DNA of 64,000 bases from Candidatus Palauibacter sp. (GCF_965216145.1 NZ_OZ244149.1:417011-481010); one strand, 5' to 3'. Counted from the stretch's first letter, positions 3,890 through 32,130 are shown. Notes: generated by a model not told the origin, from the sequence alone. Made by a program: numbers and translations.

Positions 3890-4194
3890 CCGGGTTCATC
3901 GCCATGGACTGGTTGAGCGTCGGTCAGCGGACGGATGTGCTCGACTGCGGCGGCAACCGGTACGCGCAATCGACCGGCCAAGTGCGGTTCAACGTGGGGG
4001 TGAAGGCGGACTCGGAAACGGTCACGCGGTAACGGTGAACGCGGCGCTGCGCCGGGAGGAGCTGCTGCGCCCGTTGAGCGCGCCGTGGCTGACGTGTTAC
4101 TCTACCGGTGTGCCGCAAGCGGAGATCGCGGAAGCAGCGGAAAGATGGGTCAATCTGCCGGGTGAACCGATGAACAGAGAAGGGAACGTCACAG

Positions 4195-4419
4195 ATGCGT
4201 AATCCACCAACATCTAGTTACGACATTGTTAGTGGTACATTCGATCTTTCTATCGACGGAAGCACCGTAACCGTAAAGGGCGATATCAGCAGTACCTACA
4301 ACACGGCCCTTATCCCCATAAATGTATCGTTCGATGTGGACAACAACCCTATGGACTATTCACTACGGGAGTTGGGCAAAATGGCCATCGTGCAGCACTT
4401 TCAAAAGAATGAGAGTTGA
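4195..4419 (+). CDS. Small hypothetical protein (74 aa) in an AT-rich patch
   Basis: ORF in a locally AT-rich segment that contrasts with the GC-rich surroundings; no recognisable motif. Could be non-coding. Confidence 0.3.
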   Translation: MRNPPTSSYDIVSGTFDLSIDGSTVTVKGDISSTYNTALIPINVSFDVDNNPMDYSLRELGKMAIVQHFQKNES

Positions 4420-4517
4420 GGTCAATTGAGGTCCAAGCTCCACTAGTTGAAGACAACCACTTACATAGGGTGTGTAAATTGGCGACCCGTCCAAAAAGCC
4501 GGGAACACCTCAGGATT

Positions 4518-5354
4518 CTATCCGAGGCTGTCGCGCAGGATTCTCTCCAATTCGTCAACTACGGCCCGCATGTGCAGCTTGTCTTCCGGGCGCTCTTCAC
4601 TATTGCGTATCGTATCGACGACATTTGACCATGTCTTATGGATTTCGGGCAATCTGAGCATCTTGGGATCCGCATTTAGTGCTACGTGTAGCAGCTCTTC
4701 CGCGCGAGTAAGGTCGAAAGCGTCATACGCATTAATTTTTTTGATACAGGCAAGATGCTCATTGGGGAAGTCCAACATCTGATAAAGATTATCAATATCT
4801 CTTGACAGATAAGCAGTATCCTGAAGAGCGCTTACAACTTGCTCTGCGATGTCCGACATGTTTGACTGGTGTCGGATCGCGATGGCCTCCTCAACGGCGT
4901 TGGCCAAATTGTCCCGAATCCACTCGTACCGTTCTTCGCTACTTCGCCCGGGAGGATCGTAACACTTCACCACACGGGAAAGATCTTCATGTGCGCCGAC
5001 AGCGATCCTGAACGGATTCGGACCCCTTGCGGCCACATGTCCATCCCGGTTTCGCAGGCCGTGGATGCGAATCCCGACGACGCCCATCCCATCCTTCCAG
5101 GACTTCTCAATCTCGTATTCGACCCATGGCCGTCCGGTGGTGTGGGTTCCCACCAAGACCACCGTGCAGGAGCGTGCTCGCATCTGGTCGACGATCCACG
5201 CCCTGATGGCCGGAGCACCCTGACGCGTCAATTCCTCCCAACTGGTATCCGTCGCCGGTCTGTTTCCCTCAACCACGCCGATGTTCCGAACCGTCGCCGC
5301 TCGCCAGCGGTCGGTTTCGTAGTTAAAGCTGTAGAACACCCTTCGCTTTAGCAT
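4518..5354 (-). CDS. TIR-like domain protein (DUF1863 / ThsB-like) with AT-rich C-terminal helical extension
   Basis: Start set at the internal ATG (MLKRRVFYSFNYETDRW...), residue 94 of ORF 4518..5633. N-terminal VFYSFNYETD ... CTVVLVGTHTTGRPWVEYEIEKSW ... GVVGIRIHGL fits the flavodoxin-like TIR/DUF1863 pattern. Confidence 0.65.
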   Translation of the reverse strand: MLKRRVFYSFNYETDRWRAATVRNIGVVEGNRPATDTSWEELTRQGAPAIRAWIVDQMRARSCTVVLVGTHTTGRPWVEYEIEKSWKDGMGVVGIRIHGLRNRDGHVAARGPNPFRIAVGAHEDLSRVVKCYDPPGRSSEERYEWIRDNLANAVEEAIAIRHQSNMSDIAEQVVSALQDTAYLSRDIDNLYQMLDFPNEHLACIKKINAYDAFDLTRAEELLHVALNADPKMLRLPEIHKTWSNVVDTIRNSEERPEDKLHMRAVVDELERILRDSLG

Positions 5355-5454
5355 GCCGTTCCTCCACGGCTCCCATCCACTATCACCGGCGACCGCGGGG
5401 GCGACATCGGTCGGAGGAGCGAGAACGAGATAAGATGCAACTCGGACGCCAGTT

Positions 5455-8190
5455 CTATCGCGCGGGCCGGACGCCTCCCTTGCGGCGCAGACCGTAGCCG
5501 ATCCGGAAGACATCCGGGACATCGACGCGGTCATCCCGGAGGCGACGGAAGATACCCAGGGACTCCAAAGCCTCGCGGAGTTCATCGTGGTCATAATCCA
5601 TATGCGGCAGCGGGAGCCGCCACCCGTCTCCACTACCCGCCTGGGCCAGCTGCTTCAAGACGCGTCGCTCACGCCACAGATGAACGACTTCCTCGAAATC
5701 ACACGGAACAACCCGTCCGGAGAGCGGTTGCATCAGCACCTGCACCCATGGATAATCCTCCTGTAGCTCCCGAACCCGCGTCGTGGACGCCTCCCGCACA
5801 CCGTGCTTGATGCTCTGGTAGTGAAGGGCGTAGCCATGATCCGGATGGCGTTCATGAGAATCTTCCGCCGCTGAGCGCAACGCCGTGAGAAACGAGCGCG
5901 GACTGACCTTGCCCCCGGCGTCGGCGAGGTGGTTTGGGATCCATGTGTACGGGTATCCGCGTCTCCGATCAGTGCCCATCCACGGGCCCGCGAATTCGTG
6001 GAACTTGTCGCGCTGGGCCCCCTCGTCGCGGTCGAGCGGATACGGCACTTCGAAGCGCGGTGCCGTATCGTCATCAGTCGTGGACCAGTGTCCGTCCTGC
6101 AAGCGCGGACGGACGAGGTCACCTCGTGGACCGTTGGCCAGGGAATGCCAAAGCAGGCCGTAGAGATCCCGGCGCGGCCAGCTGAGATCGACAGCCGACG
6201 ACAACACTTTCGAAGCGTCCGGAAAGTCCGTGATCCGCCGCTCGTCCACCTGATCAGTTCTCAGGAAGATCTTCGCGCGCAAGCGGCGATACGGACGCAT
6301 GTCGAGGGCGTGCTCCAGCAATCCTCGAATCAGCTCGGACGCAGTCTGCCAGTCGGAGGCGGCGCGATCCAGAGCGTCAAATAGCACGACGGAATACACA
6401 CCCCTTGAGTCCAGTTCGACATCGATAGTCCGCAGGAGGTCGAGGACGACACTCGGGTCATCGAGGACGTACCTCGCGCGTTCAAGCCACGTATCGAACT
6501 GTCGTATCGGATGGTCGGCACCCGCCACCGCGCACGCATGCACGGTTCGCCAGATGATCCGGGGCTCCACGTTGTTGGCGATTAGTCGACAAAGATCGTC
6601 CCTCACCGGATAATCGCCCGGCACATTGGAGACACCGAATCCCGACTCGACGACTGAATCTTCGTTCAAAGGAAAGCCCCGCACCTCTCGCCCCAGCGAG
6701 CGACGAACCTCGGGACTCTGCAGGGCGCGCCACCAGAATGTCTTGCCTGAGCCGCGCATTCCAGTGACGAGCATCGTGTCGGGGTGCATGGCCTTTCGAT
6801 GCGAAGGCGGGATGTACACGGCCGACGACGGGACGGGCTCGCCGTAGCTCGCCGGATCGGGCAGCTCGCTGAACGCGAGGCGCACGGTCTCGGCCCGGGT
6901 CGGGTCGCCGACTGGCTCGGGGCTTCGGTAGAGCAGGTCGAACCGTCGGAGGAACTCCCTGTACGCTTGGGCCACCGTCGTTCGCTCCAGCTTCCGGAGA
7001 GAAATTCCGGCCGCGAACCCTCGTGTCCAATGGATCACCAGCGGATCATGCTGCCCCTCCTCGGACGACAGGTCAGCCGACACCCCCTCATCCGTTTCCC
7101 CGAGATCCACGATCTCGTCCTGCAGGCGATCCCGAAGGAGGATTCGTGCGTTTTCCCGGAACCGTTCGACGTACCGCTCGGTATCCGTCTCGGGCGTCAA
7201 GGCGGAGACGATCGACAGGCGTTCGCGTATCCGGGATGCCATGTTTGTGCGCGCCCAATGATCGAACAGAATCCCGTAGTCCGTCCAATGGCTGTCGGAG
7301 TCGACGGCGAACAGCATCACCTCCGCGTCCAGATCCGTCACCGTTGCCGCCGCAATATCGTGGAGGCCGCTCCGGCTCTCGATGAGCACGACGGTCGGGC
7401 TGAACTCCGTTTCCAGGTTCACCACCAACCGCTTCAAGCGACTCGTCCAAGGATCGATCGCCGTATCCATGTACGTGCGCCCGAGCTTTGCGAGGTATTC
7501 CCCCGGCTTCCTGCCGTGCGCCGGCGCCACCAGCACACGTCCCGGCAAGTCATGAGCCCAAGAGGGCTTCCCCGTCATCCGGCTCACGACATGATCTCCC
7601 TGTCCGACCAATTCTTCGACGAACCAGTCCGTGACGCCGAACTCCGGCTCGGCCGGGGGTTCCAACATGGCCGACGCCAGCCCGGGCGACTCTAGGTCCA
7701 AATCGATGACAAGCACATCCTCCGCCTGCCGGGCGAGGTGCCACGCCAACACCGCCGCCGTCGTGCTGCGCCCCACCCCACCCTTCACCGAGTATAGGAC
7801 GTAGCGGGCCGGGTGGTGTTCGCTCGACGGGTCCGGGACTGTCCACCATTCTTGGCCGACGACGAGCCGGTCGGCCCAATGAACGCCGGGCCTGATCAAC
7901 TGCGCCGTGTCGCCCAGCGTCTCCAGCAACGCGGGATCTACGAAGAGCACTGTCTTCTGCGGCAGGTGTCCGTGGGCCGCGAGCGCATCCGCCAAGCGAC
8001 TCGCCAAGCGGCTCAGCACTTCGCCGAGTTCGCGATCATCCTGGGCTGCTTCCGATACCGATATGCCGACCTTGCCGAAGAGGTTGCGCACGAGGTATAG
8101 CGGCGGTGCGTCGGCTGGGATCTCCATCCCTTCCAGCACCTCCGATACGAGCCGCCGCACTTGGTCGAACGGAACGAAGGTGTCGCTCAT
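5455..8190 (-). CDS. Dual-NTPase protein: ParA/MinD-like domain with deviant Walker A (KGGVGRST) plus a second P-loop NTPase (GMRGSGKT)
   Basis: Start at internal ATG (MSDTFVPF...), which overlaps the stop of the upstream 140-aa gene (ATGA). YSVKGGVGRSTTAAV followed by DVLVIDLDLESPG is ParA/Soj-like; LVTGMRGSGKTFWWRAL with later VVLFDALD gives a second Walker A/B pair. Confidence 0.7.
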   Translation of the reverse strand: MSDTFVPFDQVRRLVSEVLEGMEIPADAPPLYLVRNLFGKVGISVSEAAQDDRELGEVLSRLASRLADALAAHGHLPQKTVLFVDPALLETLGDTAQLIRPGVHWADRLVVGQEWWTVPDPSSEHHPARYVLYSVKGGVGRSTTAAVLAWHLARQAEDVLVIDLDLESPGLASAMLEPPAEPEFGVTDWFVEELVGQGDHVVSRMTGKPSWAHDLPGRVLVAPAHGRKPGEYLAKLGRTYMDTAIDPWTSRLKRLVVNLETEFSPTVVLIESRSGLHDIAAATVTDLDAEVMLFAVDSDSHWTDYGILFDHWARTNMASRIRERLSIVSALTPETDTERYVERFRENARILLRDRLQDEIVDLGETDEGVSADLSSEEGQHDPLVIHWTRGFAAGISLRKLERTTVAQAYREFLRRFDLLYRSPEPVGDPTRAETVRLAFSELPDPASYGEPVPSSAVYIPPSHRKAMHPDTMLVTGMRGSGKTFWWRALQSPEVRRSLGREVRGFPLNEDSVVESGFGVSNVPGDYPVRDDLCRLIANNVEPRIIWRTVHACAVAGADHPIRQFDTWLERARYVLDDPSVVLDLLRTIDVELDSRGVYSVVLFDALDRAASDWQTASELIRGLLEHALDMRPYRRLRAKIFLRTDQVDERRITDFPDASKVLSSAVDLSWPRRDLYGLLWHSLANGPRGDLVRPRLQDGHWSTTDDDTAPRFEVPYPLDRDEGAQRDKFHEFAGPWMGTDRRRGYPYTWIPNHLADAGGKVSPRSFLTALRSAAEDSHERHPDHGYALHYQSIKHGVREASTTRVRELQEDYPWVQVLMQPLSGRVVPCDFEEVVHLWRERRVLKQLAQAGSGDGWRLPLPHMDYDHDELREALESLGIFRRLRDDRVDVPDVFRIGYGLRRKGGVRPAR

Positions 8191-8609
8191 GGCGTCCCTC
8201 CCTGCGCAGCCCATTGAACCATCAGCCGAACCTCTGACGCCGCCCGACGATGCGGCTCGACGTAGGCCTCATCGAAGTTCCCCCGGCTGGCGTAGCGGTT
8301 ATGGTGCGACCAATCGGAGAACGGTTCCCCGCCCGGAAGCTGCGCAAGCAGCGCGCCCGCGCCTCGCTGCGCCGCGAACTGGTCGAACACGTTCCACAGT
8401 TCCTCGATATGTACGCGATGCGCCCGCTCTTCCGGCGCGCCGTCGGGGCGAACGAGCATACCAAGATTCTGCATGAGCGACTTCAGGCCGCACTCGGCGC
8501 TGAACCCGTACAACTGATCCGCGTTGGCCCAGCGACGCGCGGCCGACAGGTACTCGGCATCTTCCCAGTGTCGCTCGTGCGCGTCCTCGAAGTCCGCCGC
8601 GTAGATCAT
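8187..8609 (-). CDS. Hypothetical protein (140 aa), translationally coupled to the dual-NTPase gene
   Basis: Clean ORF starting MIYAADFEDAHERH; stop overlaps the downstream start. N-terminus resembles the methyltransferase C-terminal tail and the 65-aa orphan ORF. Contains RAHRVH, a weak R-x4-H HEPN-like hint only. Confidence 0.55.
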   Translation of the reverse strand: MIYAADFEDAHERHWEDAEYLSAARRWANADQLYGFSAECGLKSLMQNLGMLVRPDGAPEERAHRVHIEELWNVFDQFAAQRGAGALLAQLPGGEPFSDWSHHNRYASRGNFDEAYVEPHRRAASEVRLMVQWAAQGGTP

Positions 8610-8803
8610 GCTAGCTCATGGCCCCGCGCAGCGCGCGTCGTGTTCAGATCCATCAGACGAGCGAGCACCTCATTGCGCACGTCGCCCGGCGGTCGGGTCA
8701 ATAGGGTGTAAGTGCCATGAGGCGGCGACCTTCCGTGGCGCTCATGAGCGTCCGTGAAGTCAGCCGGATGGATCACGAGTCCCCGGCAAGAATAGATCGG
8801 CAA
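8606..8803 (-). pseudogene. Orphan 65-codon ORF: probable remnant of a gene 3' end, homologous to the methyltransferase C-terminus
   Basis: Translation ...HPADFTDAHERHGRSPPHGTYTLLTRPPGDVRNEVLARLMDLN aligns with the methyltransferase C-terminus ...HETDEDERRRARAPHRYRWPNEVRDEVLARLMALN. Alternative start, no upstream context; lies in the 418-nt gap after the truncated ATPase. Confidence 0.3.
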
Positions 8804-9027
8804 TCCGCATGTTCACCCTCCATGGTCGGCTCGTCGCCGTCTGCGGTGCGGTTTCGGCGGTCATGCATGATACTGTGGCGCTCCAAGTTAGACGCCGGAG
8901 CGGTTTCTTGCTCCACCGCAGCCTCGCACGGCTACTGCGGGACATCGCAAGAGGTCGTGTCGATCGACCCTCTTCCGAGAGCTCCGCGGCGGAACTCCGT
9001 CCGGTGAGCGTCCGTTTCCTAAGGGGG

Positions 9028-9822
9028 TCACGGCTGTTCTTGAGGGGGTGTAGCGCTTTCGGCAGCACAGGCGATGGCGTCAAGCTTCTCGCTCACTTCC
9101 GGATCGACATCCGCAGGCGGCATGTGGCCGACGAGCCGGTAGAAGTTGCCCTTCGGCATGAGGTTTGGCAGGCCCAGCTTCGAGAAGTACGCGGTGAGCA
9201 GCGGCTTCAGGAACTCCGTGCTCACCTTCAGGTCGGCGCCCCACGGCGACGGCTTCCCGAGACGCCGCACGTTCACGGCGCCCTCGTCGAGCCGGGTCTC
9301 GGCCGCAGCCAGCCCCGACATCGGCGGCAGGAAGGCCATCCTCACGCTCCCCGCCTCGTCGGGGACGGGCATGCGGTCGGGAACGCGATCCTCCGTCAAC
9401 CGCAGCGGACGGCAGTACACCGACTCGTCGTTCGCGTAATCGAACTCGAGCCCGCACGTCCAGGCACGCCCGCGGGTCACCCCCTCGACGATGATGTCGA
9501 TGCGGATGTTCCTCGTTTGCTGTTTACCGCCTACGTACCGCACATCTCGCACCCGAAGATCCCGCCACGCGAGCTTAACGCTCGGAATTGGAATGGACAC
9601 GAGATCGCGACGGTTGATGGTCACGCCCGGGCGTTTCTCGGGCGTTCTCTTGCCGGCCCGCTTGGCGTTCCACTGGGTCAGCCCCGTGTGCCACAGGGCG
9701 AGCGCCTGCATGGCGGAGGTCTTGCCCGAATTGTTGGGTCCGATGAAGACGACCGGGCTCCCGAGCTCGACTTCGACGTCTTCGAAGCGCTTGAATCTTC
9801 GAATGGTCAGCTTTGTCAGCAT
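9028..9822 (-). CDS. AAA ATPase N-terminal fragment (AAA_15/AAA_21-like, as in GajA/PtuA/OLD-family ATPases), probably truncated
   Basis: Start at internal ATG (MLTKLTIRRFKRFEDVEVELGSPVVFIGPNNSGKTSAMQAL). Walker A present, but no Walker B, signature or H-loop before the stop at 264 aa. Confidence 0.5.
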   Translation of the reverse strand: MLTKLTIRRFKRFEDVEVELGSPVVFIGPNNSGKTSAMQALALWHTGLTQWNAKRAGKRTPEKRPGVTINRRDLVSIPIPSVKLAWRDLRVRDVRYVGGKQQTRNIRIDIIVEGVTRGRAWTCGLEFDYANDESVYCRPLRLTEDRVPDRMPVPDEAGSVRMAFLPPMSGLAAAETRLDEGAVNVRRLGKPSPWGADLKVSTEFLKPLLTAYFSKLGLPNLMPKGNFYRLVGHMPPADVDPEVSEKLDAIACAAESATPPQEQP

Positions 9823-9901
9823 ACGACGCCACCACTTCCCGTCCGGTCGCTTGCATGCGGCTTCAGCCAGCAGAGCAGCGGAACCGCGCATGGCGCACTG
9901 C

Positions 9902-11272
9902 TCATCTGACCCCCTGGAACTCCGCATCCACTCGTTCCAAGTCACGTCTCAGGTCATTCGCCGCTTGGCGCGCAAGGCGGAGCCGTTCCTTCTGATTCCG
10001 GCACCGTTCGCCCAGTTCCGAATAGCATATGGACAGATTGAGAAGTGACGAGAACAGGCCTTGAGCTGCCGTGTCGACCGCCTTGAGATCTTCCGGCGAA
10101 AAAGGCAGATCGCTTCCGCGCTCACCAAGTTCTTGGCCTTGCCCCGCCAGCTCGCGTAGACGCAGATCGCACTCGTTCGGCGTGCTCTTACCCGCTTCGA
10201 GATCGGAGAGGACGCGGATCACATTTTGCACGAGAGGACGGCTGGCTGAAACAAGTGTCTTGATCTCCCTTAGCATGGGCCCCTTCTTGCCCGTATGCTG
10301 TCGATGGAATTCTCTCCAGTGCCCGTACTGGTGATTCCAAAGAATCGAGACACCATCCCAAACTTCGTCACCGTCCCACGGCATCGGACGACAGGATGGA
10401 TCGAGGCCCGGATCAACCCACTGAGTTCGCGCAATCCAGTTCGCGTGACGAACGTCGTCGTGTCCGCCCGCCACATAGAGGTATACGACGTCTGCTCTAT
10501 GCCCGGACCAAAGCGCCTCAAGTTGAGGACTTCGGTGGTATTCCTCTTCGCGAATCTCCGGAAGAGCCCGACTGATCACGTCCCTAACGCCATCGCGCCC
10601 CGCGTGGCGATCAACTACCAGCACCGCTGAATAACGCTTGGCACCCGCATGACTCACGTCCTCGAGCCGCACGATCTCGTACGGCAGGTCGCCCTTCACC
10701 GGCACTTCGAGGATTGCGTCGGGCGCACGACGCTGGCCACAGGCACACGTCCCGTCGTTACGGAACAGCTTCCCGTCCCGAGGGCAGATCTTCTCGTATG
10801 CGATGAGGAGCCGGGCGCAATCAACCGTATCGACGATGAGGTGTGGGACAGTCGCGTCGCTGGCCGTCTGCGCAAAGTCGCGTCGCGCATCATCCTGAAT
10901 GTCCCCTACGGCCATCAGCACTGCCAAACCGAGGTCCGGTATCGTTCGGAGCTTAGCGAACTGATGAGAAACGATTTTGCTCGTAACCTTCGGGAAGGAA
11001 GGACCCTTCAAGACGAAGCCGGCGGTAACCGGACGACCACGTAGGACGATCCGAGTCGTAACGATGTCGGCGATCTCCGTTGGACCGTGTGGCGTTTCGT
11101 TCGGGTCGAAGAGGATCTCACGAACTGCTGATTCCAGCGCACGTTCGTTCAACCGCCGAACCTCCGCGAGCACGTCGTCAGACACGCCTGTGGCTGGAAT
11201 CCGAACCACCTTGGCGAACTGATCGATTTCACCGAGCGCCACCAAACGGGCCCGGTTCACGCCGATCCCCAT
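9902..11272 (-). CDS. Hypothetical protein (456 aa) with Cys cluster and C-terminal coiled coil; candidate partner of the methyltransferase
   Basis: Start at internal ATG (MGIGVNRARL...), 29 nt after the methyltransferase stop. Contains CPRDGKLFRNDGTCACGQ and a charged C-terminal helical region. No confident family assignment. Confidence 0.5.
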   Translation of the reverse strand: MGIGVNRARLVALGEIDQFAKVVRIPATGVSDDVLAEVRRLNERALESAVREILFDPNETPHGPTEIADIVTTRIVLRGRPVTAGFVLKGPSFPKVTSKIVSHQFAKLRTIPDLGLAVLMAVGDIQDDARRDFAQTASDATVPHLIVDTVDCARLLIAYEKICPRDGKLFRNDGTCACGQRRAPDAILEVPVKGDLPYEIVRLEDVSHAGAKRYSAVLVVDRHAGRDGVRDVISRALPEIREEEYHRSPQLEALWSGHRADVVYLYVAGGHDDVRHANWIARTQWVDPGLDPSCRPMPWDGDEVWDGVSILWNHQYGHWREFHRQHTGKKGPMLREIKTLVSASRPLVQNVIRVLSDLEAGKSTPNECDLRLRELAGQGQELGERGSDLPFSPEDLKAVDTAAQGLFSSLLNLSICYSELGERCRNQKERLRLARQAANDLRRDLERVDAEFQGVR

Positions 11273-11303
11273 CCGGTCGTGAAAGACCTGTTCTGCCTTG
11301 TTC

Positions 11304-14300
11304 TCAAGTCGTTCCTCCCGCCGACAGGTGTTGCGTACCCTGCGCACGTTCGGAATTTAGAGCCATCAGGCGGGCCAACACCTCGTCCCGCACCTCGTTG
11401 GGCCAGCGATATCGATGGGGTGCCCTTGCACGGCGACGCTCATCTTCGTCGGTCTCATGGTTGAGCAGGAACTCGCATCGGGTAGGGATGTCGGACCAGC
11501 CGTACGCATCGAGGACGACCCGATCGATGTCCGCGTGAAGCTCGCGGAGCCTCGATACCGCCGGATCCGTTTCGTTCCGGTCGTGGAACCGGTTGTACGT
11601 CTTGGTCAAGCCCTCCTGGTTGTGAAGCATGAGGTCGCCGCGAAACTCGTAGTATGCCTTGCCGACTCGCTCCCGGACGGGATCTGCATGCCAGTCTGGA
11701 GGAAACGGGAAAGTCTCAAAGCAGTCGGACGGCGTGTACCGCAGCCGTTCCTCAAGCGTCGACCCGAAAAAGCGTGCCCAAACCTCGTGAACGCGGGATT
11801 GAAGGACGCAAAACGCTGCGTAAGTGTCCATGGAAAAAATCACAAGAGTGTTGGCGAAAACCATTCGGGCTGGAAGAAACGCTAATGCCAGATGGGGCGT
11901 GGCACCGCAGTTGACGGCCAACACTCGATTCAAATCCGCGATGGTCGCGTAGAGTCCTGCAGCTTTTTCGGCGTGTTGCCACCAACGCTCTCGACGCACC
12001 TTACGGTTCTGTCGCTCACGGTCGGGCTTCACCTTTTCTTCTAGAATCTGCACTAACTCTGGCCATCGCTCGCGGCACTCGTCCTGCCGACGCTTGCCAA
12101 AGTTGATCACGTAGCGGTGATGCGCTTGCGCGAGGCTCGTGTTGACCTCCTGCCCGCCAATGTAGGGGAAGATCACTTGCGCATTGTGCGGATCCTCAGC
12201 GATAAGCCTCCGCATTTCGGCCAAGGGCGTGGCCACTCCCTTGGTGTCGGTGTCGTCGAACGTGAAGCCCATGCCGAGGACGATGCTCCCCTGAAAGCTC
12301 TGCTCCGCGTTTTCCTTGAGCCGCGGCGGGTCGTCGTTCCCACCTGCGTGGAACAGAAATGCCGTGATCCGTTCGACGGCGGCGTCATCGAGCGATTTCT
12401 GGTGCCCGAACCTCCCTTTCACGATGTGCAGGACGCTGACCACTACAGCCGCAACGCCCGGCCACTTGAAGCGGGTTTGCGCGCGGTAGATCTCTCCGCC
12501 GCGCGTGCAGATCCAGCGGAGGCCCGTGGACCGGGTGTCGCCTTGCGAAATCGTGTTCGTCGCGATGAGGCCCAGCGTGCCTTGTTTGCGCAGCAGGTTG
12601 AACGACCGCCGGAAGAAGTGGGCGACCAAATCCGCGTTGCCGTGGCTCCGCGCGTGCAGTTCCTTGAGCCACAGCGGGTAGCCGGGGACGTTCGAGGCCG
12701 CGACGGTGTTCTTGCCCGCGAACGGCGGGTTCCCGACGAAGGCGTCAAAGCCCGGGTTCCGGCGCTCGAACACCTCCGGGAACTCGATCTCCCAGTGGAA
12801 CGGGGCGAACGGCGTGGTCTCCTTCCGTTTCGCGGCGAGGCGCCCCCCGTGGGAGAGAACGGCGAGGCGTTCCGTATCGCTGTCGCCCAGAAGAGACGCG
12901 AAGTGCTGCCGCCGGCGGGCCTCCCGCTGCCTCGCTCTTGTCTCGAGGAAGAACGCCTCCAGCGCCAGATCGCCGAAGAACCGGACGTCCGTCAGCGCCG
13001 CGTTCGCGTCGTCCAGCTTGTCTCGAAGTTCCCGCTGGTCGATGTCGGGCGGCGCGTCCCTGATCTCCCCGCGTAGCGCGACCACGCGGTCCACTGCGTC
13101 CGAGACCACGGTGTTCAGCTCCAGCTGGGGCGGCAGGGATCCCCTCTTCCAGGTGAAGGCGGCGATCTGCGGCTTCGCCAGGCCGACCAGGGAGTCGCCG
13201 TCGCGGAGGGCGTGGTCCACGAAGGTGAGCGGTTCGTCCTTGGCCAGGGTGGCCAGCCACAACGACATCTTGGCGAGGTCCACCGCCATGGGGTTGCGGT
13301 CCACGCCGTAGAGGCAGCGATGCGCCACGAGACGGCGGGCGAACAGATCTTCGTCCTCCCCGGACGGGAGAGCGGGGAGCGTTCCGTGCATCCGCCATGC
13401 GGTGACGAGATGGTCGCCCAGTTGGCGGCAGGCCTCGACGAGGAAGGCGCCCGAACCCATGGCGGGATCGCAGACCTTGAGATCGAGGATCTGCTCGGCG
13501 CGGGGCGGGCCGCCGTCTCCGAGGCGTTCGAGGATCGGTTCCAGCGCTTGCCGCACGATCGGTTCGGTGAGTTCGCGCGGCGTGTAGTGCGATCCCGAGC
13601 GCCGCCGCGCCTCGCTGGGCTGGAGGATCATCGCGCCGCGCGGCACCAGATCCGGTGTGGCCGCCGCGTCGATGACGTTGTGCAGGGAGGCGTGCGCGTC
13701 GGCGAGCGTTTGCGCCGCGCGGAGGGGCTTGCTCACGGTGGGCGTCAGCTTTCGGCCCGTCCGGTCAAGAATCCATTTCGGGCGATCGACGGGCGCAACA
13801 TCCAAGAGCAGTTCCAGATCCACCGTTGTCGAGGCTCCGAGCTTCTTCTGCGCCTTGACGGCGGCGGACCGGCCCGTCGCGGTCTCCAGCCGGAACCCCA
13901 TCATCGTCTCGTACACGGAGCCGATCTGCTCCACGTCGAGCGCGCGGTACGAGATCCGTTCGCCGTCGAGGACCAGCAGCTTGTCGAGCACCCGGTAGAT
14001 CGTTCCGTCCGGCACCAACGGAACGTCGATCCCCTCGTGCACCTGCGGTGCGCCGCTCCCGCGCCATCCCTCGAGGAACGGGAACCGACTCGGGCTGAAC
14101 AGTTCTCCGCGCCGCGGCGGGAGTCTCATTCCGTCGCACTCCGCCCCGTCGTGGACCATGCGAAACAGCACGACGAGCTGTGCCCACGCCCCGTAGCGCT
14201 GGTCCATCGTGTCCGGGTTGAGCGCCGCGTCCTCCCTCAGCCTCTCGTACAGTCCGCCCAGCGAATAGGAGCCGAGGAAGGTCGCGTCGTCCGACAACAT

Positions 14301-15359
14301 CCCGCGCTCTTCGGCGTAGAGCACGAACACGAGGCGCAGTACGACGGTGAGGAGCGCGCGGTACACGTTGTCCGGATCCTCGTCCAGCGCCTCGCGCAGA
14401 AGCTTACCGTGCGACGCGTCGTGCGCCGCCTGGAAGCCACGCAACAACTCGTGCAGGGCGTGCAGCACCTGCTCGGCCAGCCGCTCGCTGACCACGTTCT
14501 GGTACTTGCGGCTGCTCTCCAGAAGGGCCGCCAGCCGTTGCTCCCGCGGCAGCGCCAGCAGCCGCTTCTCGGAGAGGAGGAGGCGTAGCGCCGCACACAG
14601 CGGGCGGCCCGCCGTGGAGAGCATGTCGCCGACCCGGAAGTCCATCCACCCGGAACTCTCGCCCCGCGGCGCGGACATGAGCCGGATCACGCGTCCGTTG
14701 AAGAGCAGCCCGGCGGGGACCCCGGTGCGGCGCAGCAGCCGTTCCATGCGCCCGTGGGGCGAGGCCTCGAGCCGGCCCGCACCCGTGGCGACGCGATCGA
14801 GGTCCTCCCCGGGGTCGAGGACGGTGACGAGCAGTTGCCACGGCACGCCTCCCTCCGCCGGATCCCGTTCGCGCACGGCGAGGCGGGGCCGCAGCACATC
14901 CCGGTATTCCTGGAGGCTGACCTCCAATTCGGGAGGAATGGGCGAATCGCCTATGCCCGCGTAGCCGCTGGGCGAGAAGCGCCAGCCCAGGACGGATCTC
15001 GCAAACGCTTCGAAGTCGGGCAGGTAGGGTTCGGGTTCTGCCGAGGTGCCGAACGCGCGTTCCCGGACGCACTCGTTCAGAAGCCGCTGTCCCCCGATGT
15101 CCCGCCGGTCAAGCACCGCGCCCGCCTGGACGAGCGCGTGTGCGGACACCACGAGCCCGGTCGGCTGGATGAACCCCAGCCACTCGAGGTGGTCCCGGAC
15201 GTAGGGCGAGGGCTTGGCCACGCGGCTCAGCCGGTCTCGGGCCAGAGATACACGAGTCCGACCGGCTCCACGCGACGCGCCCGCACCCGATAGAAGTCCT
15301 CGATCCGCGCCGGCTCGTCGCGCAGGTCGCGCTCGAACTGCTTGAGCCGGTCCCGCCAC
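11304..15359 (-). CDS. Gamma-class N6-adenine DNA methyltransferase (PglX / type IIG / Eco57I-like), ~1350 aa
   Basis: Motif order X-I-IV: SGSHYTP, then DPAMGSGAFL (SAM-binding motif I), then FVGNPPFAGKN (catalytic NPPF). Long N- and C-terminal extensions. ORF-track start is an alternative codon overlapping the helicase 3' end; the true start may be about 45 codons downstream. Confidence 0.8.
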   Translation of the reverse strand: MAGPAQAVRARPARRAGADRGLLSGAGASRGAGRTRVSLARDRLSRVAKPSPYVRDHLEWLGFIQPTGLVVSAHALVQAGAVLDRRDIGGQRLLNECVRERAFGTSAEPEPYLPDFEAFARSVLGWRFSPSGYAGIGDSPIPPELEVSLQEYRDVLRPRLAVRERDPAEGGVPWQLLVTVLDPGEDLDRVATGAGRLEASPHGRMERLLRRTGVPAGLLFNGRVIRLMSAPRGESSGWMDFRVGDMLSTAGRPLCAALRLLLSEKRLLALPREQRLAALLESSRKYQNVVSERLAEQVLHALHELLRGFQAAHDASHGKLLREALDEDPDNVYRALLTVVLRLVFVLYAEERGMLSDDATFLGSYSLGGLYERLREDAALNPDTMDQRYGAWAQLVVLFRMVHDGAECDGMRLPPRRGELFSPSRFPFLEGWRGSGAPQVHEGIDVPLVPDGTIYRVLDKLLVLDGERISYRALDVEQIGSVYETMMGFRLETATGRSAAVKAQKKLGASTTVDLELLLDVAPVDRPKWILDRTGRKLTPTVSKPLRAAQTLADAHASLHNVIDAAATPDLVPRGAMILQPSEARRRSGSHYTPRELTEPIVRQALEPILERLGDGGPPRAEQILDLKVCDPAMGSGAFLVEACRQLGDHLVTAWRMHGTLPALPSGEDEDLFARRLVAHRCLYGVDRNPMAVDLAKMSLWLATLAKDEPLTFVDHALRDGDSLVGLAKPQIAAFTWKRGSLPPQLELNTVVSDAVDRVVALRGEIRDAPPDIDQRELRDKLDDANAALTDVRFFGDLALEAFFLETRARQREARRRQHFASLLGDSDTERLAVLSHGGRLAAKRKETTPFAPFHWEIEFPEVFERRNPGFDAFVGNPPFAGKNTVAASNVPGYPLWLKELHARSHGNADLVAHFFRRSFNLLRKQGTLGLIATNTISQGDTRSTGLRWICTRGGEIYRAQTRFKWPGVAAVVVSVLHIVKGRFGHQKSLDDAAVERITAFLFHAGGNDDPPRLKENAEQSFQGSIVLGMGFTFDDTDTKGVATPLAEMRRLIAEDPHNAQVIFPYIGGQEVNTSLAQAHHRYVINFGKRRQDECRERWPELVQILEEKVKPDRERQNRKVRRERWWQHAEKAAGLYATIADLNRVLAVNCGATPHLALAFLPARMVFANTLVIFSMDTYAAFCVLQSRVHEVWARFFGSTLEERLRYTPSDCFETFPFPPDWHADPVRERVGKAYYEFRGDLMLHNQEGLTKTYNRFHDRNETDPAVSRLRELHADIDRVVLDAYGWSDIPTRCEFLLNHETDEDERRRARAPHRYRWPNEVRDEVLARLMALNSERAQGTQHLSAGGTT

Positions 15360-18300
15360 GAGCGGATGTTGGCCCGAAGCTGCTTCCGGTCCTCGTCGTC
15401 GAGGGCGAGCGTGAGCTGGGGTTCCTTCTCGTGCCGCTGCAGCTCCTTCTCGACGCGATCCCGCTGGCGAGTCAGGGTCTCGCGCAGCTCCCCCGCCTCC
15501 CGCTCACCGCGCTCGCTGAGACGCTCGGCCGCCTTCTTCGCCAACTCCTCCGCTCTGGGTTCCAACTGGGGTCTCAAGTCGCCGATGTCTGCGGGGGCCG
15601 CGGCGAGCAGCCGTTCCCGCACGGTCTCGCTCGGCTGCGACACCCGTTCCGAGTCGAGCACCCGGTCGAGCAGGGCCAGCGTCTTCCGCTCCGCGTCCGC
15701 CCGGTATCGCTCCAGCGGGCCCTGGCGGCGTTCGGGGTCCGTCCAGCGGGCCGTCACCGTAACGATCTCCTCGTGCAGGCGCTCCGCGCGTCGGCCGTAT
15801 AGCGACAGGCGCCCCAGCAGCACGACCCGGGGGATGGAGTCGGCCACCTGCGCGAGACAGGCCCGCGACAGGTCGTGGTGCACGAAGCCCTGCGCCCGGA
15901 ACCGGGCCAAGAGGCGCTGCGCGACCCGCTGTTCAAGGTGCAGGTGCACGACATCGTCCGTCAGTTCGCCCGGATCCTCGAACACGACCGGGCGGACGGG
16001 CGCCTCCCGCCGCCACTCCACGATCTTCTGATCCCGCTTCATCGGTGCGCGCAGCGTGTCGAGGGTCGACGCCCACGAGGGGTCCGCCGCCACCCGTCCG
16101 TCGAGGGCCGGGAACGACCACACCGCCCGCCCGTTCTCGTCGCGCGCCTCCCTCAGCGGCGCCGCGTTCTGAAGCCCCAGCGAGCACGACAGCGCCCTGC
16201 GGAATGCCTCAGGACCGAACCGCACCCACTCGCGCGACTTCTCGAGCAGGTTCCGGCAGCGCTCGATCTGATCCTCAAGATCGCTTTGCCGCTCGCGCGC
16301 CGACTCGAACTCGTCCGCCACGCGGCGCTTGCGGTCCGCCTCCAGATCCATCCCCGCCAGCGTCTCGGCGAGCCCCGTGGCATCACGGCGCCGAATCCCC
16401 TGCTTGAGCCGCTTCTCGATGTCCTCCTCGATCACCTTCGAGAGGCTGCCCAGCTCCCGGCGGATGGTCTCGGTCTTCCTCACCAGCACCTCGAGCACCC
16501 GGTCTTCGTGACGCTGGGGCAGGGTGAAGTAGTGGCAGCGCACTTCGTCCGCGGGCTGGAGCTTGCGGTCGATCCGCCCGTTGCGCTGCTCGATCCGGCC
16601 GGGGTTCCAGGGCAGGTCGAAGTGGAATAGGTCGGTGCAGTGCGCCTGGAAGTTCAGCCCCTCGCGCGCCGCATCCGTCGCCAGCAGGATGCGCAACGGA
16701 TCCCGCGACGGAGGCGTGTTGAAGCGGCGCTGGATTTCCTTGCGCCGCGCGCCGCTCGTGGCCCCCTCGATCACGGCAATCCGCTCCTCCGCCCTGTCCG
16801 TTCCCGCGATCGCGTGCGACAGCGCGTCCCTGAGGAACCGCTTGGTGCCCTCCACATGCTCGGTGAAGATCAGCACCCGGCGCTCGTTCCAGCGGGGCGT
16901 CCCCACTGCAGGCATTCCAAAGGGCGGAAGTTCGGGACACAGGTTCTCCCGGATCCAATCGAGGAGCGCGCGCGTCTTCGCGTCGGGGTGCGTGCGCGCA
17001 GAGTCCGCGACCTCCTGCATGCGGTCGAGCAGGCGCTGCTCCTTCCGCCACAAGTCCTCGATCCGGGCATCGCGCTTCAACGCCGACTCGGCCTCCCGGT
17101 TGGCGGCCTCGATCTGTGCTTCCTCCGCAGCTTCCTCAGCACCGTCGAGGATCTCGTCGTCCGCCCCCGGTGTCGTCAGGAAATCCTCCGCCAGCGCCCG
17201 GCGCGCCGCTCCGCCGCGAGCGTGCCGCTCGTCGCTTCCCGCGTTGCGGCCGGTCCCGGCCTCCCATTGCCTCTTCACCGTCTTCCGGTGCCGCGCGAGA
17301 CTGATGGCGAACGCCTCGATGGACGACAGCAGGCGCTGTTGAAGGCCGACGACGAGCAATCCCGCCGCCGCCCGCCCCCGGGCCGTCGCGTGGGCGAAGC
17401 GCTGGTCGCGCACGGAGCGGTATTCGTCCAGCAGCCTTGAGAGCACGAGTTCCGGCGCGTCCTCCGGCAGGTTGTCGATGACGACCGGTCTCACGTCCCG
17501 CTTGGGGAAGCCGCCCTGGATCTCGCGGATGTCTTCCTTGAGACGGCGGATCATCACGGCGTCGAGGTCCGTCTTCCCGCGCACCGTCACGCCTCGCGTG
17601 AAGCGGTGCGGGTCGAGCAGTTCCAACAGCGTGGAGAAGCTGTTCGAGTGCCCGTTGTGCGGCGTCGCCGACAGGAAGAGACGATGCTCGAAGCGGTAGC
17701 AGAGGTCGCGAATCGCGCGCGTGAACTTCGACTCGATGCCATACCGCCCGCCGTGGCTTGGGGCGGCGTGATGCGCCTCGTCCAGAATCAGCAGGCTTCC
17801 GGGCGACATCGTTCCGAGCCACTCCCGCATAGGATCCGCGTAGGCGGGATCGGCCAACAGCCGGTGCGAAACGAGGAACCGGCTGTGCGTCCGCCACGGA
17901 TTCACGCCGAAGCCGCGCTCGCGGCGCATCGTCGCCACGTAGTGCCGGTCCAGGATCTGGAACACGAGCCCGAACCGCTCCTCCATCTCCGCCTTCCACT
18001 GCTCCAGCACCGAGGGAGGCGCGGCCACAACGATGGTCTTCGCCTTTCGGCGCAGGAGAAGCTCGCGCGCGATCAGCCCGGCCTCGATCGTCTTGCCCAG
18101 ACCGGTGTCGTCCGCGATGAACAGGTTCACGCGCGGCAGGCGGAGGGCCTTCCTCAGCGGCTCCATCTGGTAGGCGTCTAGGGTGATCCCGGCCCGGAAC
18201 GGCGCCTGAAACAGCGACGGATCGGTCGCGGTCGTGCAGCTCCACCGCAACGTGTTGAGGAAGGCCGCGAAGTACTCCGGCGAGTCGAAGCCGCGCTCCG

Positions 18301-18589
18301 CCAAGTTCTCCCACGGCTCATCATCGAGGATGGCGCGGTCGAGCTCGTACTTCCAGAAGACTTCGAGTTCCTGCCCCTGCGCATCGTCATCCGCGCACGC
18401 CAGCCGGACCCGCGCGGACTCACTGGACTGTCGGCCCCCCGTCACCTCCTCCACCAGCCAGCGCCGTGTACGTACCCGCACCATCTCCCCCACCTCCGGA
18501 TCCCGGCTTGGCAAGCCACGGGAAAGCCGAGGGTCACCGTGGGCGTTAGCTGCGTCATGGGAACCGAGCGGTTCCAGGTCAGGCGTCAT
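15227..18589 (-). CDS. SF2 helicase, SNF2/DEAH-type (DISARM DrmD-like / BREX helicase-like), ~1120 aa
   Basis: Helicase motifs I LFIADDTGLGKT, II LLILDEAHH, III LFLSATPHNG, VI QRNGRIDRKLQ; long C-terminal coiled-coil region. Confidence 0.8.
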   Translation of the reverse strand: MTPDLEPLGSHDAANAHGDPRLSRGLPSRDPEVGEMVRVRTRRWLVEEVTGGRQSSESARVRLACADDDAQGQELEVFWKYELDRAILDDEPWENLAERGFDSPEYFAAFLNTLRWSCTTATDPSLFQAPFRAGITLDAYQMEPLRKALRLPRVNLFIADDTGLGKTIEAGLIARELLLRRKAKTIVVAAPPSVLEQWKAEMEERFGLVFQILDRHYVATMRRERGFGVNPWRTHSRFLVSHRLLADPAYADPMREWLGTMSPGSLLILDEAHHAAPSHGGRYGIESKFTRAIRDLCYRFEHRLFLSATPHNGHSNSFSTLLELLDPHRFTRGVTVRGKTDLDAVMIRRLKEDIREIQGGFPKRDVRPVVIDNLPEDAPELVLSRLLDEYRSVRDQRFAHATARGRAAAGLLVVGLQQRLLSSIEAFAISLARHRKTVKRQWEAGTGRNAGSDERHARGGAARRALAEDFLTTPGADDEILDGAEEAAEEAQIEAANREAESALKRDARIEDLWRKEQRLLDRMQEVADSARTHPDAKTRALLDWIRENLCPELPPFGMPAVGTPRWNERRVLIFTEHVEGTKRFLRDALSHAIAGTDRAEERIAVIEGATSGARRKEIQRRFNTPPSRDPLRILLATDAAREGLNFQAHCTDLFHFDLPWNPGRIEQRNGRIDRKLQPADEVRCHYFTLPQRHEDRVLEVLVRKTETIRRELGSLSKVIEEDIEKRLKQGIRRRDATGLAETLAGMDLEADRKRRVADEFESARERQSDLEDQIERCRNLLEKSREWVRFGPEAFRRALSCSLGLQNAAPLREARDENGRAVWSFPALDGRVAADPSWASTLDTLRAPMKRDQKIVEWRREAPVRPVVFEDPGELTDDVVHLHLEQRVAQRLLARFRAQGFVHHDLSRACLAQVADSIPRVVLLGRLSLYGRRAERLHEEIVTVTARWTDPERRQGPLERYRADAERKTLALLDRVLDSERVSQPSETVRERLLAAAPADIGDLRPQLEPRAEELAKKAAERLSERGEREAGELRETLTRQRDRVEKELQRHEKEPQLTLALDDEDRKQLRANIRSWRDRLKQFERDLRDEPARIEDFYRVRARRVEPVGLVYLWPETG

Positions 18590-18831
18590 GCGGAGCGTCC
18601 AAGGGCACGTACCGGGTCATTCCGGTTGGGCGACAGGATGACCGACACCTCAGCCCTCCGGCAAGCTCTCGCGCGTCCCTCCCGCCGTGCCCTCCCATGT
18701 TGCATACTCGCTCCTCGTAGCCAAGCACCCCGCCTCCGATGCAACCTTTCGGATGTCGCCCGGTTTTCCGCATGATCGTATCGTTCGACCGGCTCGACCT
18801 GTCACCGCGTGCGTCCGTCAAAACGCTTATC
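18590..18831. promoter_or_regulatory. Divergent intergenic region between the helicase operon (-) and the SIR2-like gene (+)
   Basis: About 240 nt non-coding spacer between divergent starts; appears to contain a short inverted repeat (GTTGCAT ... ATGCAAC). No promoter consensus confidently identified. Confidence 0.3.
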
Positions 18832-19875
18832 ATGCATATGCTCACGAAAACTGAACTTACGGGCTCTCCACAAAACGGACGCCCTCACGTTGTCCTTCTC
18901 GGCGCGGGTGCAAGTAGGGCCGCGTTTCCCGATGGGGACCGACACGGCAGATCCATACCCCTAATGTCTGACCTCGCAGACCTCCTCGGATCGCCCTGGA
19001 CCGATCTTGTCGTGCGCGCCAGTCCTCCGGTCAACGGCTTTGAGCGCCAATTCACTTGGCTAAGGGATCAGCATCGTTACACGGATTCTCTCCATGAAAT
19101 AGAGTCCTCCCTTTTTGACTATTTCGTGAACCTCGCTCTACCGGACCACGCAACGATTTATGATCATCTTGTCCTAGGACTTCGCCGGAAGGATGTAATT
19201 GCGACGTTCAACTGGGATCCGTTTCTGCTTCTTGCCCATCGACGCAACAGACTTCCTAATCTGCATCTTCCCGACATCAGGTTCCTTCACGGCTGTGTGC
19301 TGTACGCCAGTTGCATTCAGCATTCTGAAGTGCTTGGCTCACCAGGGGAGATCTGCCCTCGCTGTAACAAACCTCTAACTCGAAGCAGTTTGATCTTTCC
19401 CGTTGAAGACAAGAACTACGTCGACGACCGCTTGATCGCTGAGGATTGGAGGGCGGTGACGGATACACTCCCAAGAGCTTTTCAACTGACCATATTCGGA
19501 TACTCCGGTCCGTCGACGGACTACCAAGCCAAGACGTTGCTCCGAGACGCTTGGGGTGCTTCGGCTACTGACGATTCTTCCATGTCCCCCATACGTCAAT
19601 TCAGCCACCTCGAGATTATCGACACCGTGAAGGGCGGTGAACTGTATGAGCGCTGGAAGGATCTCATTCCTCTCGACCACCTCATGTCGACCGATACGTT
19701 CTGGGATTCCTCGATGGCCAGATGGCCCCGCAGAACCGCGGAGTCTAAGTTGCAGGCGAGCATCTTTGCGCGAATAGTTGAACCCCTCGGTCCGTGTCGC
19801 ACGACGAATCTTGGGGAGCTCCAAGAGTTCCACATGGAGCTTGCAAGAGTGGAGAGGGAGAAGGGTGTGGAGTAA
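18832..19875 (+). CDS. SIR2-like (SIR2_2 / DHS-like NAD-binding) protein, stand-alone
   Basis: Start at internal ATG (MHMLTKTEL...). VVLLGAGAS (Rossmann-like), IATFNWDPFL (TTNYD-like), FLHG (catalytic-His position), IFGYSGPSTD (GYSxxD). Locally lower G+C than the flanks. Confidence 0.6.
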   Translation: MHMLTKTELTGSPQNGRPHVVLLGAGASRAAFPDGDRHGRSIPLMSDLADLLGSPWTDLVVRASPPVNGFERQFTWLRDQHRYTDSLHEIESSLFDYFVNLALPDHATIYDHLVLGLRRKDVIATFNWDPFLLLAHRRNRLPNLHLPDIRFLHGCVLYASCIQHSEVLGSPGEICPRCNKPLTRSSLIFPVEDKNYVDDRLIAEDWRAVTDTLPRAFQLTIFGYSGPSTDYQAKTLLRDAWGASATDDSSMSPIRQFSHLEIIDTVKGGELYERWKDLIPLDHLMSTDTFWDSSMARWPRRTAESKLQASIFARIVEPLGPCRTTNLGELQEFHMELARVEREKGVE

Positions 19876-19907
19876 TATGGGATCGGGGTCGTTCAGCGGT
19901 CTGGTGC

Positions 19908-32018: not shown

Positions 32019-32130
32019 GACACCAGTGTCGGGAAGGGTCGGGGGTCAGGGCGCCGCGCGGGCTCGACCGGCTGCAAAACTCGGGACCGCTCTCGTTTGG
32101 GTCAATCTCTTGCACGGAAGCCGTGACAGG

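Follow-up and report, generated by a model that had tools for sequence, protein, structure and literature searches.

The array described here occupies positions 4518 to 18589 of a 64,000-nucleotide (nt) stretch of DNA from Candidatus Palauibacter sp., a member of the Gemmatimonadota (GCF_965216145.1 NZ_OZ244149.1:417011-481010), which is referred to throughout as the window. It contains seven genes, the first two of which are drmD and drmMI of the class 1 DISARM defence system. These are followed by a gene for an uncharacterized protein of 452 amino acids (aa), the remnant of an ABC-type ATPase gene, the two genes of a PDC-M28 cassette and a TIR gene. An initial annotation, made from the sequence alone, had placed seven open reading frames (ORFs) on the minus strand from 18589 down to 4518 and had recognized a helicase, a methyltransferase, ATPases and a TIR protein among them. 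The ORFs lie where it put them, and its domain calls are borne out by profile searches of Pfam, PADLOC and NCBIfam, on which our own calls are based. It had also proposed that the run is one composite super-operon of co-regulated modules. Is the array such a unit? Or is it what remains of a DISARM operon in which other defence cassettes have become nested? Here we compare the array with 80 loci anchored on relatives of its PDC-M28 protein (L001 to L080, from many phyla and all metagenome-assembled genomes), using tblastn and ORF clustering, and with three closer relatives, L089, L091 and L092, that were found through individual proteins. Three separate searches also matched NCBI proteins of 100% identity on the window's own 4.3-Mb contig.

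Gene starts were refined from NCBI protein lengths, the consensus N-termini of the families and the gene calls in close relatives. The first gene, drmD (15227..18484, minus strand, as are all features of the array), encodes the SNF2-like helicase of class 1 DISARM in 1085 aa. Its longest ORF begins at 18589, and the start given here is inferred from 1085-aa gene calls in L089 and L092 together with DNA homology that begins at 18505. The methyltransferase gene drmMI (11304..15221, 1305 aa; longest ORF from 15359) starts with a GTG at 15221, 5 nt past the drmD stop, a spacing that is identical in the L089 and L092 gene calls. The helicase and methyltransferase overlap of the initial annotation, 133 nt, arises only if the longest ORF is taken. 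Its other spacings hold overall. The gene of the 452-aa protein (9902..11260) follows drmMI after 43 nt, or after the 29 nt first reported if an ATG at 11272 is used. The ATPase remnant (9028..9822, 264 aa) follows after a further 79 nt and PDC-M28A (8187..8609, 140 aa) after 418 nt. M28A is joined by a 4-nt ATGA overlap to a PDC-M28B-C fusion, M28BC (5455..8190, 911 aa), and 100 nt separate this from the TIR gene (4518..5354, 278 aa). The chance of seven co-directional genes by coin-flip is about 1.6%. Stronger evidence that the run is not due to chance comes from L089 and L092, since the same order recurs there at 68–89% DNA identity. The G+C content varies from block to block: 55% in the TIR gene, 60% in the 452-aa gene, 64–66% in M28 and drmMI, 69% in drmD and 73% in the neighbouring core gene.

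The two leading genes are clear members of their families. DrmD scores 1037 bits against the NCBIfam DISARM_DrmD equivalog model (cutoff 610) and 1022 bits against PADLOC DrmD, and contains the Pfam SNF2-rel_dom and Helicase_C domains. DrmMI is an N6-adenine DNA methyltransferase of MmeI/Eco57I-like architecture that scores 1266 bits against PADLOC DrmMI, with the Pfam domains Eco57I, MmeI_Mtase, MmeI_TRD and N6_Mtase. Class 1 DISARM is defined by a drmA/drmB/drmC core preceded by drmD and drmMI (10.1101/2021.12.28.474362). The window has the drmD (PF00176) and the drmMI adjacent to it. Its called genes between 1 and ~34.7 kb include no drmA (PF00271), drmB (DUF1998, PF09369) or drmC (PLD, PF13091) by Pfam or PADLOC, and tblastn with the L003 proteins recovered no DrmA or DrmB relic in the whole window, including the region downstream of the TIR gene (DrmC was not queried by tblastn). 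In relatives it is in this region, here a non-coding array end of lower G+C (3890..4517, 55%), that drmA, drmB and drmC are found. The core triplet is absent from the window, and the locus is therefore a DISARM remnant rather than a DISARM system. In Serratia, removal of drmABC largely abolished protection against phage Nami, and the residual protection against T1 and M13 needed a second methylase, DrmMII (10.1101/2021.12.28.474362). Because most protection is lost there without drmABC, and because DrmMII is not present here, the locus would by analogy be expected to give little DISARM-type interference.

The 452-aa protein has no sequence match in Pfam, PADLOC, NCBIfam, PHROG or the PDB. It nevertheless belongs to a family with at least 270 homologues in clusters at 90% identity, of a uniform length of about 451 aa and from both bacteria and archaea, and an exhaustive search gave 399 clusters at 50% identity. 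The AlphaFold model (pLDDT 89.5) has an N-terminal alpha/beta domain, a middle alpha/beta domain and a C-terminal four-helix bundle. These fall into a putative nuclease head of the PD-(D/E)xK type with a Cys/His cluster (aa ~1-180) and a conserved module of alpha/beta domain and four-helix bundle (aa ~190-450). Residues E66, D69 and K89 of the head are invariant and are placed on predicted strands. Its fold matches, all weak (Foldseek E >= 0.02), are to the Avs4 nuclease head, MspJI, EcoT38I, AF1548 and LlaBIII. The head (aa ~4-180) and the remainder (aa ~190-450) also turned up apart in the exhaustive search. TPR giants, an SF2 helicase and a Mu-transposase-like protein carry the head as a fusion, and paralogues of the C-terminal module have Mrr_cat or DUF4365 at the head's position. 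This domain shuffling supports a nuclease head, and it is what one would see if a nuclease effector could be exchanged on a sensor or regulatory module that is itself conserved. Outside Palauibacter-like loci the gene is usually solitary, with transposases, recombinases, AbiEi or HEPN genes as its neighbours.

The next gene product is labelled an 'AAA family ATPase' by NCBI, and matches Pfam AAA_15/AAA_23 only over its first ~45 residues, at the Walker A end. The intact gene in L089 encodes 580 aa, with an ABC ATPase head, a TOPRIM/DUF4435-like tail ('EGxxD') and weak matches to AriA, AriAB and HEC-01A. Aligned with it, the remnant is 92% identical over aa 1-186 and resumes in frame at aa ~487-574; about 316 codons are missing at ~9264, corresponding to L089 11997-12945. 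Gone with them are Walker B, the signature motif, the H-loop and the TOPRIM/DUF4435-like 'YLEGSTD', and Walker A alone is kept. The comparison rules out a short functional ATPase, and by its sequence the gene is dead through in-frame deletion. A 287-aa protein of at least 90% identity from another ENA contig clusters with the remnant, which lowers the likelihood of an assembly artefact, the more so if this protein has the deletion too.

The 418-nt gap before M28A is not empty: it holds a relic ORF. The first 251 nt (9027..8777) are 84% conserved with the intergenic region before M28A in L089, L091 and L092 by blastn, and they end where the original M28A start survives, at 8776 (GTG ATC CAT..., translated MIHPADFTDAHERH). 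From there a 56-codon ORF of 171 nt (8776..8606) joins 14 former M28A codons (MIHPADFTDAHERH) to 42 codons from the C-terminal end of a drmMI gene (with ..VRNEVLARLMDLN.. and ..PPGDVRNEVLARLMDLNTTRAA.. in its translation), and its TGA overlaps the ATG of the present M28A at 8609 (ATGA). The N-terminal part matches M28A homologues, and the C-terminal peptide matches the window's own drmMI and, in 15 further loci, the 3' end of a drmMI gene or what remains of one. About 150 nt (8734..8587) are without counterpart in L089, L091 and L092. DNA identity with L089 reaches 89.4% between drmD and the 5' part of the ATPase gene, 84% over the next 530 nt and 81% from M28 to the TIR gene, and the same blocks of L092 give 86%, 84% and 68%; the fall from 84% to 81% or 68% takes place across the scar. 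These sequences are most simply read as the trace of a recombination event in which the M28-TIR segment was exchanged for that of a donor with M28A directly after drmMI, as in L003. Similar debris is seen in other loci. L023 has a drmMI C-terminal relic before M28A (9448-9501), and L030 and L053/L079 have short drmD-like fragments just upstream of M28A, all without an intact drmMI. Such relics suggest that M28 copies outside DISARM can be descendants of copies once embedded in it.

PDC-M28 is a three-family cassette and PDC-M50 a two-family cassette in the supplement of Payne et al. 2024 (10.1101/2024.01.29.577857). In our literature search, PDC-M28 was not named in the main text of any paper found, and 'KGGVGR' and '8WCF' likewise returned no papers. 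All three M28 families are present in order in the window, with PADLOC scores of 161 bits for A, 397 bits for B and 537 bits for C. The fused protein is covered over its full length by M28B (aa 14-428) and M28C (aa 442-918), a KGGVGR-type ParA/MinD-like ATPase (NCBIfam AAA_KGGVGR, 159 bits) being followed by a Sll1717-like P-loop NTPase. Both P-loops are invariant in alignment. M28B and M28C are separate genes in most of the 80 loci and fused in about 12. M28A, which automatic annotation calls a methyltransferase and for which a PDB sequence search gave no useful match, has a HEPN four-helix fold. Its invariant residues are H14, D17, E39, K43, H67 and R105-Y106, with H120-R121 nearly so. We regard the cassette as a candidate anti-phage system. 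Nearly all of the M28BC relatives come from genomes of marine or sponge-associated lineages, among them Vicinamibacterales, Latescibacterota, Binatia, Entotheonella, Longimicrobiales and Rhodothermales, and they are 50–62% identical across phyla, which suggests that the protein has spread horizontally and widely within one habitat.

The last gene encodes a ThsB-like TIR protein with a helical C-terminal extension of ~110 aa. It matches Pfam ThsB_TIR (PF08937; E 1.5e-23), PADLOC ThsB (195 bits) and PDC-M50B (183 bits), and in the PDB 8wcf (E 7.5e-35) ahead of the ThsB structures 6lhy and 9b7d (E 1e-16); the Glu of 'YEI' is retained. A PADLOC scan of the 17 proteins called between 1 and ~34.7 kb matched no ThsA (SIR2 or Macro/TM domain with SLOG), and a Thoeris assignment is rejected on this ground. 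The TIR had also been considered as part of PDC-M28, until the gene of its usual partner, M50A, was recognized in other loci and the assignment was replaced by PDC-M50B. M50A is a membrane protein of 133-146 aa (PADLOC PDC-M50A, 137-142 bits) that is encoded directly upstream of the TIR in L003, L008, L012, L015, L036 and L068 and is degenerate in L002 and L004. Neither an M50A ORF nor a relic was found in the 100-nt gap or elsewhere in the window. The L092 locus (12517-12942) has a 217-nt spacer between M28BC and the TIR gene that encodes 'KLAHVEFIHATVD', by eye like the M50A N-terminus (KLKHLEFIQ...). This may be an M50A relic, and the partner may have been lost stepwise in the lineage.

The placement of these genes is clarified by the relatives. 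Gene order in L089 follows that of the window all the way from the FG-GAP gene upstream of the array to the TIR gene. In L092 the order is drmD-drmMI-455aa-M28A-M28BC-TIR-drmA-drmB(DUF1998)-drmC(PLD), with the ATG of drmA immediately after the TIR stop. L091 is without drmABC, like the window, and has a convergent EruA-like NACHT gene there instead. A DISARM gene lies within 10 kb of M28 in 14 of the 80 loci. In ten, drmA/drmB are downstream on the same strand (PADLOC 904 and 260 bits), and in six (L003, L036, L057, L068, L071 and L076) drmMI or drmD is also upstream. In these six, all from other phyla, the interval between drmMI and drmA holds M28, PDC-M50 (A+B), IetAS and HEC-01 (A+B) in varying order. 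The guests stand strictly on one strand between the host genes in L092, L003, L057, L068, L036 and L076, and the window keeps the upstream host genes alone.

Because L092 and the six loci show this nesting between drmMI and drmA, we read the array as what is left of a class 1 DISARM operon, its 5' half and the guests nested there, after loss of the 3' half. Four guests follow drmMI in the orientation of the host, namely the 452-aa gene, the dead ATPase/TOPRIM gene, PDC-M28 and the TIR half of PDC-M50, and their co-directionality and tight spacing come from their nesting in the host operon. The guests are, by their sequences, cassettes with separate distributions that have been exchanged by recombination, with one breakpoint kept as the scar at 8776..8606. 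Overall, we put at roughly 80% the probability that a decayed class 1 DISARM locus accounts for the array, with the drmMI-drmA junction as a landing and exchange site for self-contained defence cassettes.

Several observations weigh against this reading or against parts of it. The missing drmABC could sit elsewhere on the 4.3-Mb contig, beyond the window. The 452-aa gene comes after drmMI in all four related loci, and its nuclease assignment leans on the weak fold matches given above, with the canonical acidic residue two positions before K89 not conserved. M28A has no clear canonical Rx4-6H motif. The TIR gene stands directly after M28BC in 8 of the 12 fused loci and in none of the 66 split ones (Fisher p = 2e-8), and the pairing spans three phyla; M28 and M50 may therefore be more than neighbours and functionally linked, although shared descent as a composite cassette explains the pairing equally well. 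We also infer, rather than observe, the co-regulation and the activity of every part.

The transcription signals bear on co-regulation. Between 3800 and 20000 a promoter and terminator scan found no terminator-like or sigma-70-like site in any intergenic gap; its hits, one promoter-like and four terminator-like sites, were all intragenic and fewer than in shuffles. Such a scan is uninformative for Gemmatimonadota, so that its result counts neither for nor against internal signals, a further reservation about the reading above. Minimum free energy folding of every gap gave no convincing terminator, and Rfam (3500-20000) and tRNA scans found nothing. The conserved stretch 8777..9027, in which the scan saw no sigma-70-like site, is by its conservation a candidate internal promoter region. 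Since the gaps hold no such sites, read-through transcription, and with it co-transcription of the array, is plausible. A search for direct and inverted repeats over 1-24000 found none flanking the cassettes, the repeat families seen belonging to the FG-GAP gene.

Part of the super-operon proposal stands. The genes are co-directional, tightly spaced and recurrent, and the guests do share one host operon. What fails is their unity, as two of the blocks are broken and all show the independent distribution that the initial annotation itself had named as a refutation. One 'ATPase' is a deletion remnant, the TIR belongs to a different candidate, the two-gene PDC-M50, and drmABC is missing from the window. 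An integrated operon would have DrmD and DrmMI provide self/non-self marking and DNA tracking, with the nuclease, the HEPN/NTPase proteins and the TIR as dependent effectors in place of DrmABC. The single strand, the tight spacing without terminator-like sites between genes, the order kept in L089 and L092, the loss of drmABC while the guests stay, and a scar in which M28A was formerly ATGA-coupled to a drmMI gene would all fit. The comparative data make it improbable nonetheless. When the blocks are followed through the 80 loci, the M28 families travel together, with M28A accompanying M28B/C in 71, yet 66 of the loci have no DISARM gene within 10 kb. The 452-aa gene and its modules are found on their own or in fusions of other kinds, the TIR is paired with a family of its own, M50A, the order and content of the cassettes differ among DISARM loci, and L092 has drmABC together with the same guests. 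Nor does M28 have a common alternative host, as a PADLOC scan of 65 same-strand neighbours from the loci without DISARM found no family in more than three of them. Functional integration of the blocks is thus not supported.

A looser form of integration would treat drmD-drmMI as a reusable front end, a methylation mark plus a DNA translocase, with an interchangeable back end. The back end would be DrmABC in classic DISARM, or nuclease, HEPN-NTPase and TIR cassettes recombined in via the conserved drmMI 3' end, and the window would then be a working DISARM variant with non-canonical effectors. We think this reading improbable, to about the same degree as the integrated operon. A more modest novelty would be that the 452-aa family, with its 399 clusters at 50% identity, is a new stand-alone antiviral nuclease family.

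Equally unlikely, in our judgement, is that drmD, drmMI and the 452-aa gene form a helicase-methylase-nuclease restriction system, analogous to a split type ISP or Hma-like system, with the other genes as unrelated island neighbours. The 452-aa gene does lie directly after drmMI, at 43-58 nt, in the window, L081, L089 and L092, its head resembles restriction-type nucleases including the type ISP nuclease LlaBIII, and drmD also scores 201 bits on the PADLOC HmaA models. However, the four co-occurrences are from closely similar loci (77-79% aa identity) and amount to roughly one event, DISARM loci in other phyla are without the 452-aa gene, and elsewhere the gene has no helicase or methylase nearby. 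In addition, the DISARM of L092 is complete and needs no substitute nuclease. An ordinary defence island, in which unrelated systems have piled up side by side without any nesting in a host operon, would suit the heterogeneous G+C and the defence-like genes in other orientations on both flanks (an EruA-like NACHT protein and a 378-aa ORF), and is very improbable given a scar that carries a drmMI 3' end and the same cassettes bracketed by drmMI and drmA/drmB on one strand in L092 and five loci of other phyla (L003, L036, L057, L068 and L076).

If the array is a decayed DISARM locus with nested cassettes, its parts might work as follows. Transcription would probably read through from a promoter upstream of drmD, perhaps aided by the conserved 251 nt before M28A. 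DrmMI could still methylate host adenines, and DISARM interference would be slight or nil without DrmABC. The C-terminal module of the 452-aa protein would sense or regulate and its PD-(D/E)xK head would cut nucleic acid. The two P-loop NTPases of M28 may act as sensor or switch for the HEPN subunit, leading to an abortive-infection-type response. The orphan TIR, with its catalytic Glu, may consume NAD+ or may be decaying.

Beyond the array, further defence-like genes are present. The start of the window (1-2799, plus strand) encodes the last ~930 aa of a NACHT antiphage protein resembling EruA (NCBIfam NF058535, 417 bits, under the 1000-bit cutoff), 52–59% identical to the DUF8371 protein of 1346 aa that L091 has at this position. 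It is followed by a 336-aa ORF (2879-3889, plus strand) that is rich in Cys at its N-terminus and at its C-terminus weakly similar to nucleoside-2-deoxyribosyltransferases (Pfam E 0.004; phrog_3634). The two genes converge on the TIR gene, and the defence island therefore extends beyond the window start. On the other side a divergent 378-aa ORF (18739..19875, plus strand, G+C 55%) lies between drmD and the next minus-strand gene upstream, a high-G+C FG-GAP/ASPIC core gene. The ORF has no match in any library searched, and a PDB search returned nothing useful. NCBI annotates just a 161-aa piece of it. SIR2-like motifs (LLGAGAS, FNWDPF, FLHG, CxxC) are recognizable by eye only, with no hidden Markov model support, and it is 13 kb from the TIR gene. 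L089 has PDC-M07A+B at this position, which is therefore a second variable slot of the island. Farther away, 12 kb from the array among housekeeping-like genes, a HATPase_c and STAS/DUF4325 protein (30771-32045, minus strand) matches the N-terminal region of the long DrmA model (PADLOC PDLC02567, 105 bits); it is probably unrelated to the array.

The array is a clean example, at the level of sequence, of defence cassettes nested into a DISARM operon and swapped within it, and the breakpoint that survives points to the conserved drmMI 3' end as an anchor for recombination. The array also shows how automatic calls can mislead: here only part of DISARM is present, the 'AAA ATPase' is what a deletion left, 'ThsB' stands without its partner and M28A goes under the name of a methyltransferase. 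PDC-M28 gains a structure-based annotation, with a HEPN fold in subunit A and a B-C fusion as a minority form linked to PDC-M50. The widespread and unannotated 452-aa nuclease-like family becomes a new 'guilt-by-embedding' candidate.

Compared with class 1 DISARM (Ofir et al. 2018; the Serratia system), the window has full-length, adjacent drmD and drmMI genes in canonical order with equivalog-level scores, and in relatives whose copies of this pair show 86% DNA identity, drmA, drmB and drmC lie downstream. It differs in having no drmABC and, after drmMI, four foreign cassettes instead. Like the PADLOC candidate PDC-M28, it has all three families with strong scores and with A and BC coupled through ATGA, yet its B and C are fused into one 911-aa protein, the minority form (12 of ~80 loci). 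The intact L089 protein shares the architecture of the ABC ATPase-TOPRIM defence proteins (OLD, PARIS AriA/B, HEC-01/04), of which the window copy keeps no catalytic motif but Walker A. The TIR is of the ThsB family (PF08937), with its Glu kept, and is closest to PDC-M50B and PDB 8wcf; unlike PDC-M50 and Thoeris it has neither an M50A partner nor ThsA, and it has the C-terminal extension. The 452-aa protein resembles single-protein PD-(D/E)xK defence nucleases, such as Mrr-type type IV enzymes and the Avs4 head, in its N-terminal nuclease-like head; in contrast to these it falls in no named family by sequence, its C-terminal module is uncharacterized and its catalysis is predicted only. The array as a whole has its parallel in the defence systems genetically embedded in BREX, DISARM, type I restriction-modification and Hma systems (Payne et al. 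2024, 10.1101/2024.01.29.577857), where PDC-M28 and PDC-M50 were defined and where guests nest on the same strand among host genes. In the window, by contrast, the host has lost its downstream half, two guests are damaged, a swap scar is present, and PADLOC v2 includes neither the 452-aa family nor ATPases of the 580-aa type. The array is a new instance of a documented kind of embedding, to which it adds the scar, the HEPN assignment of M28A and a candidate nuclease family.

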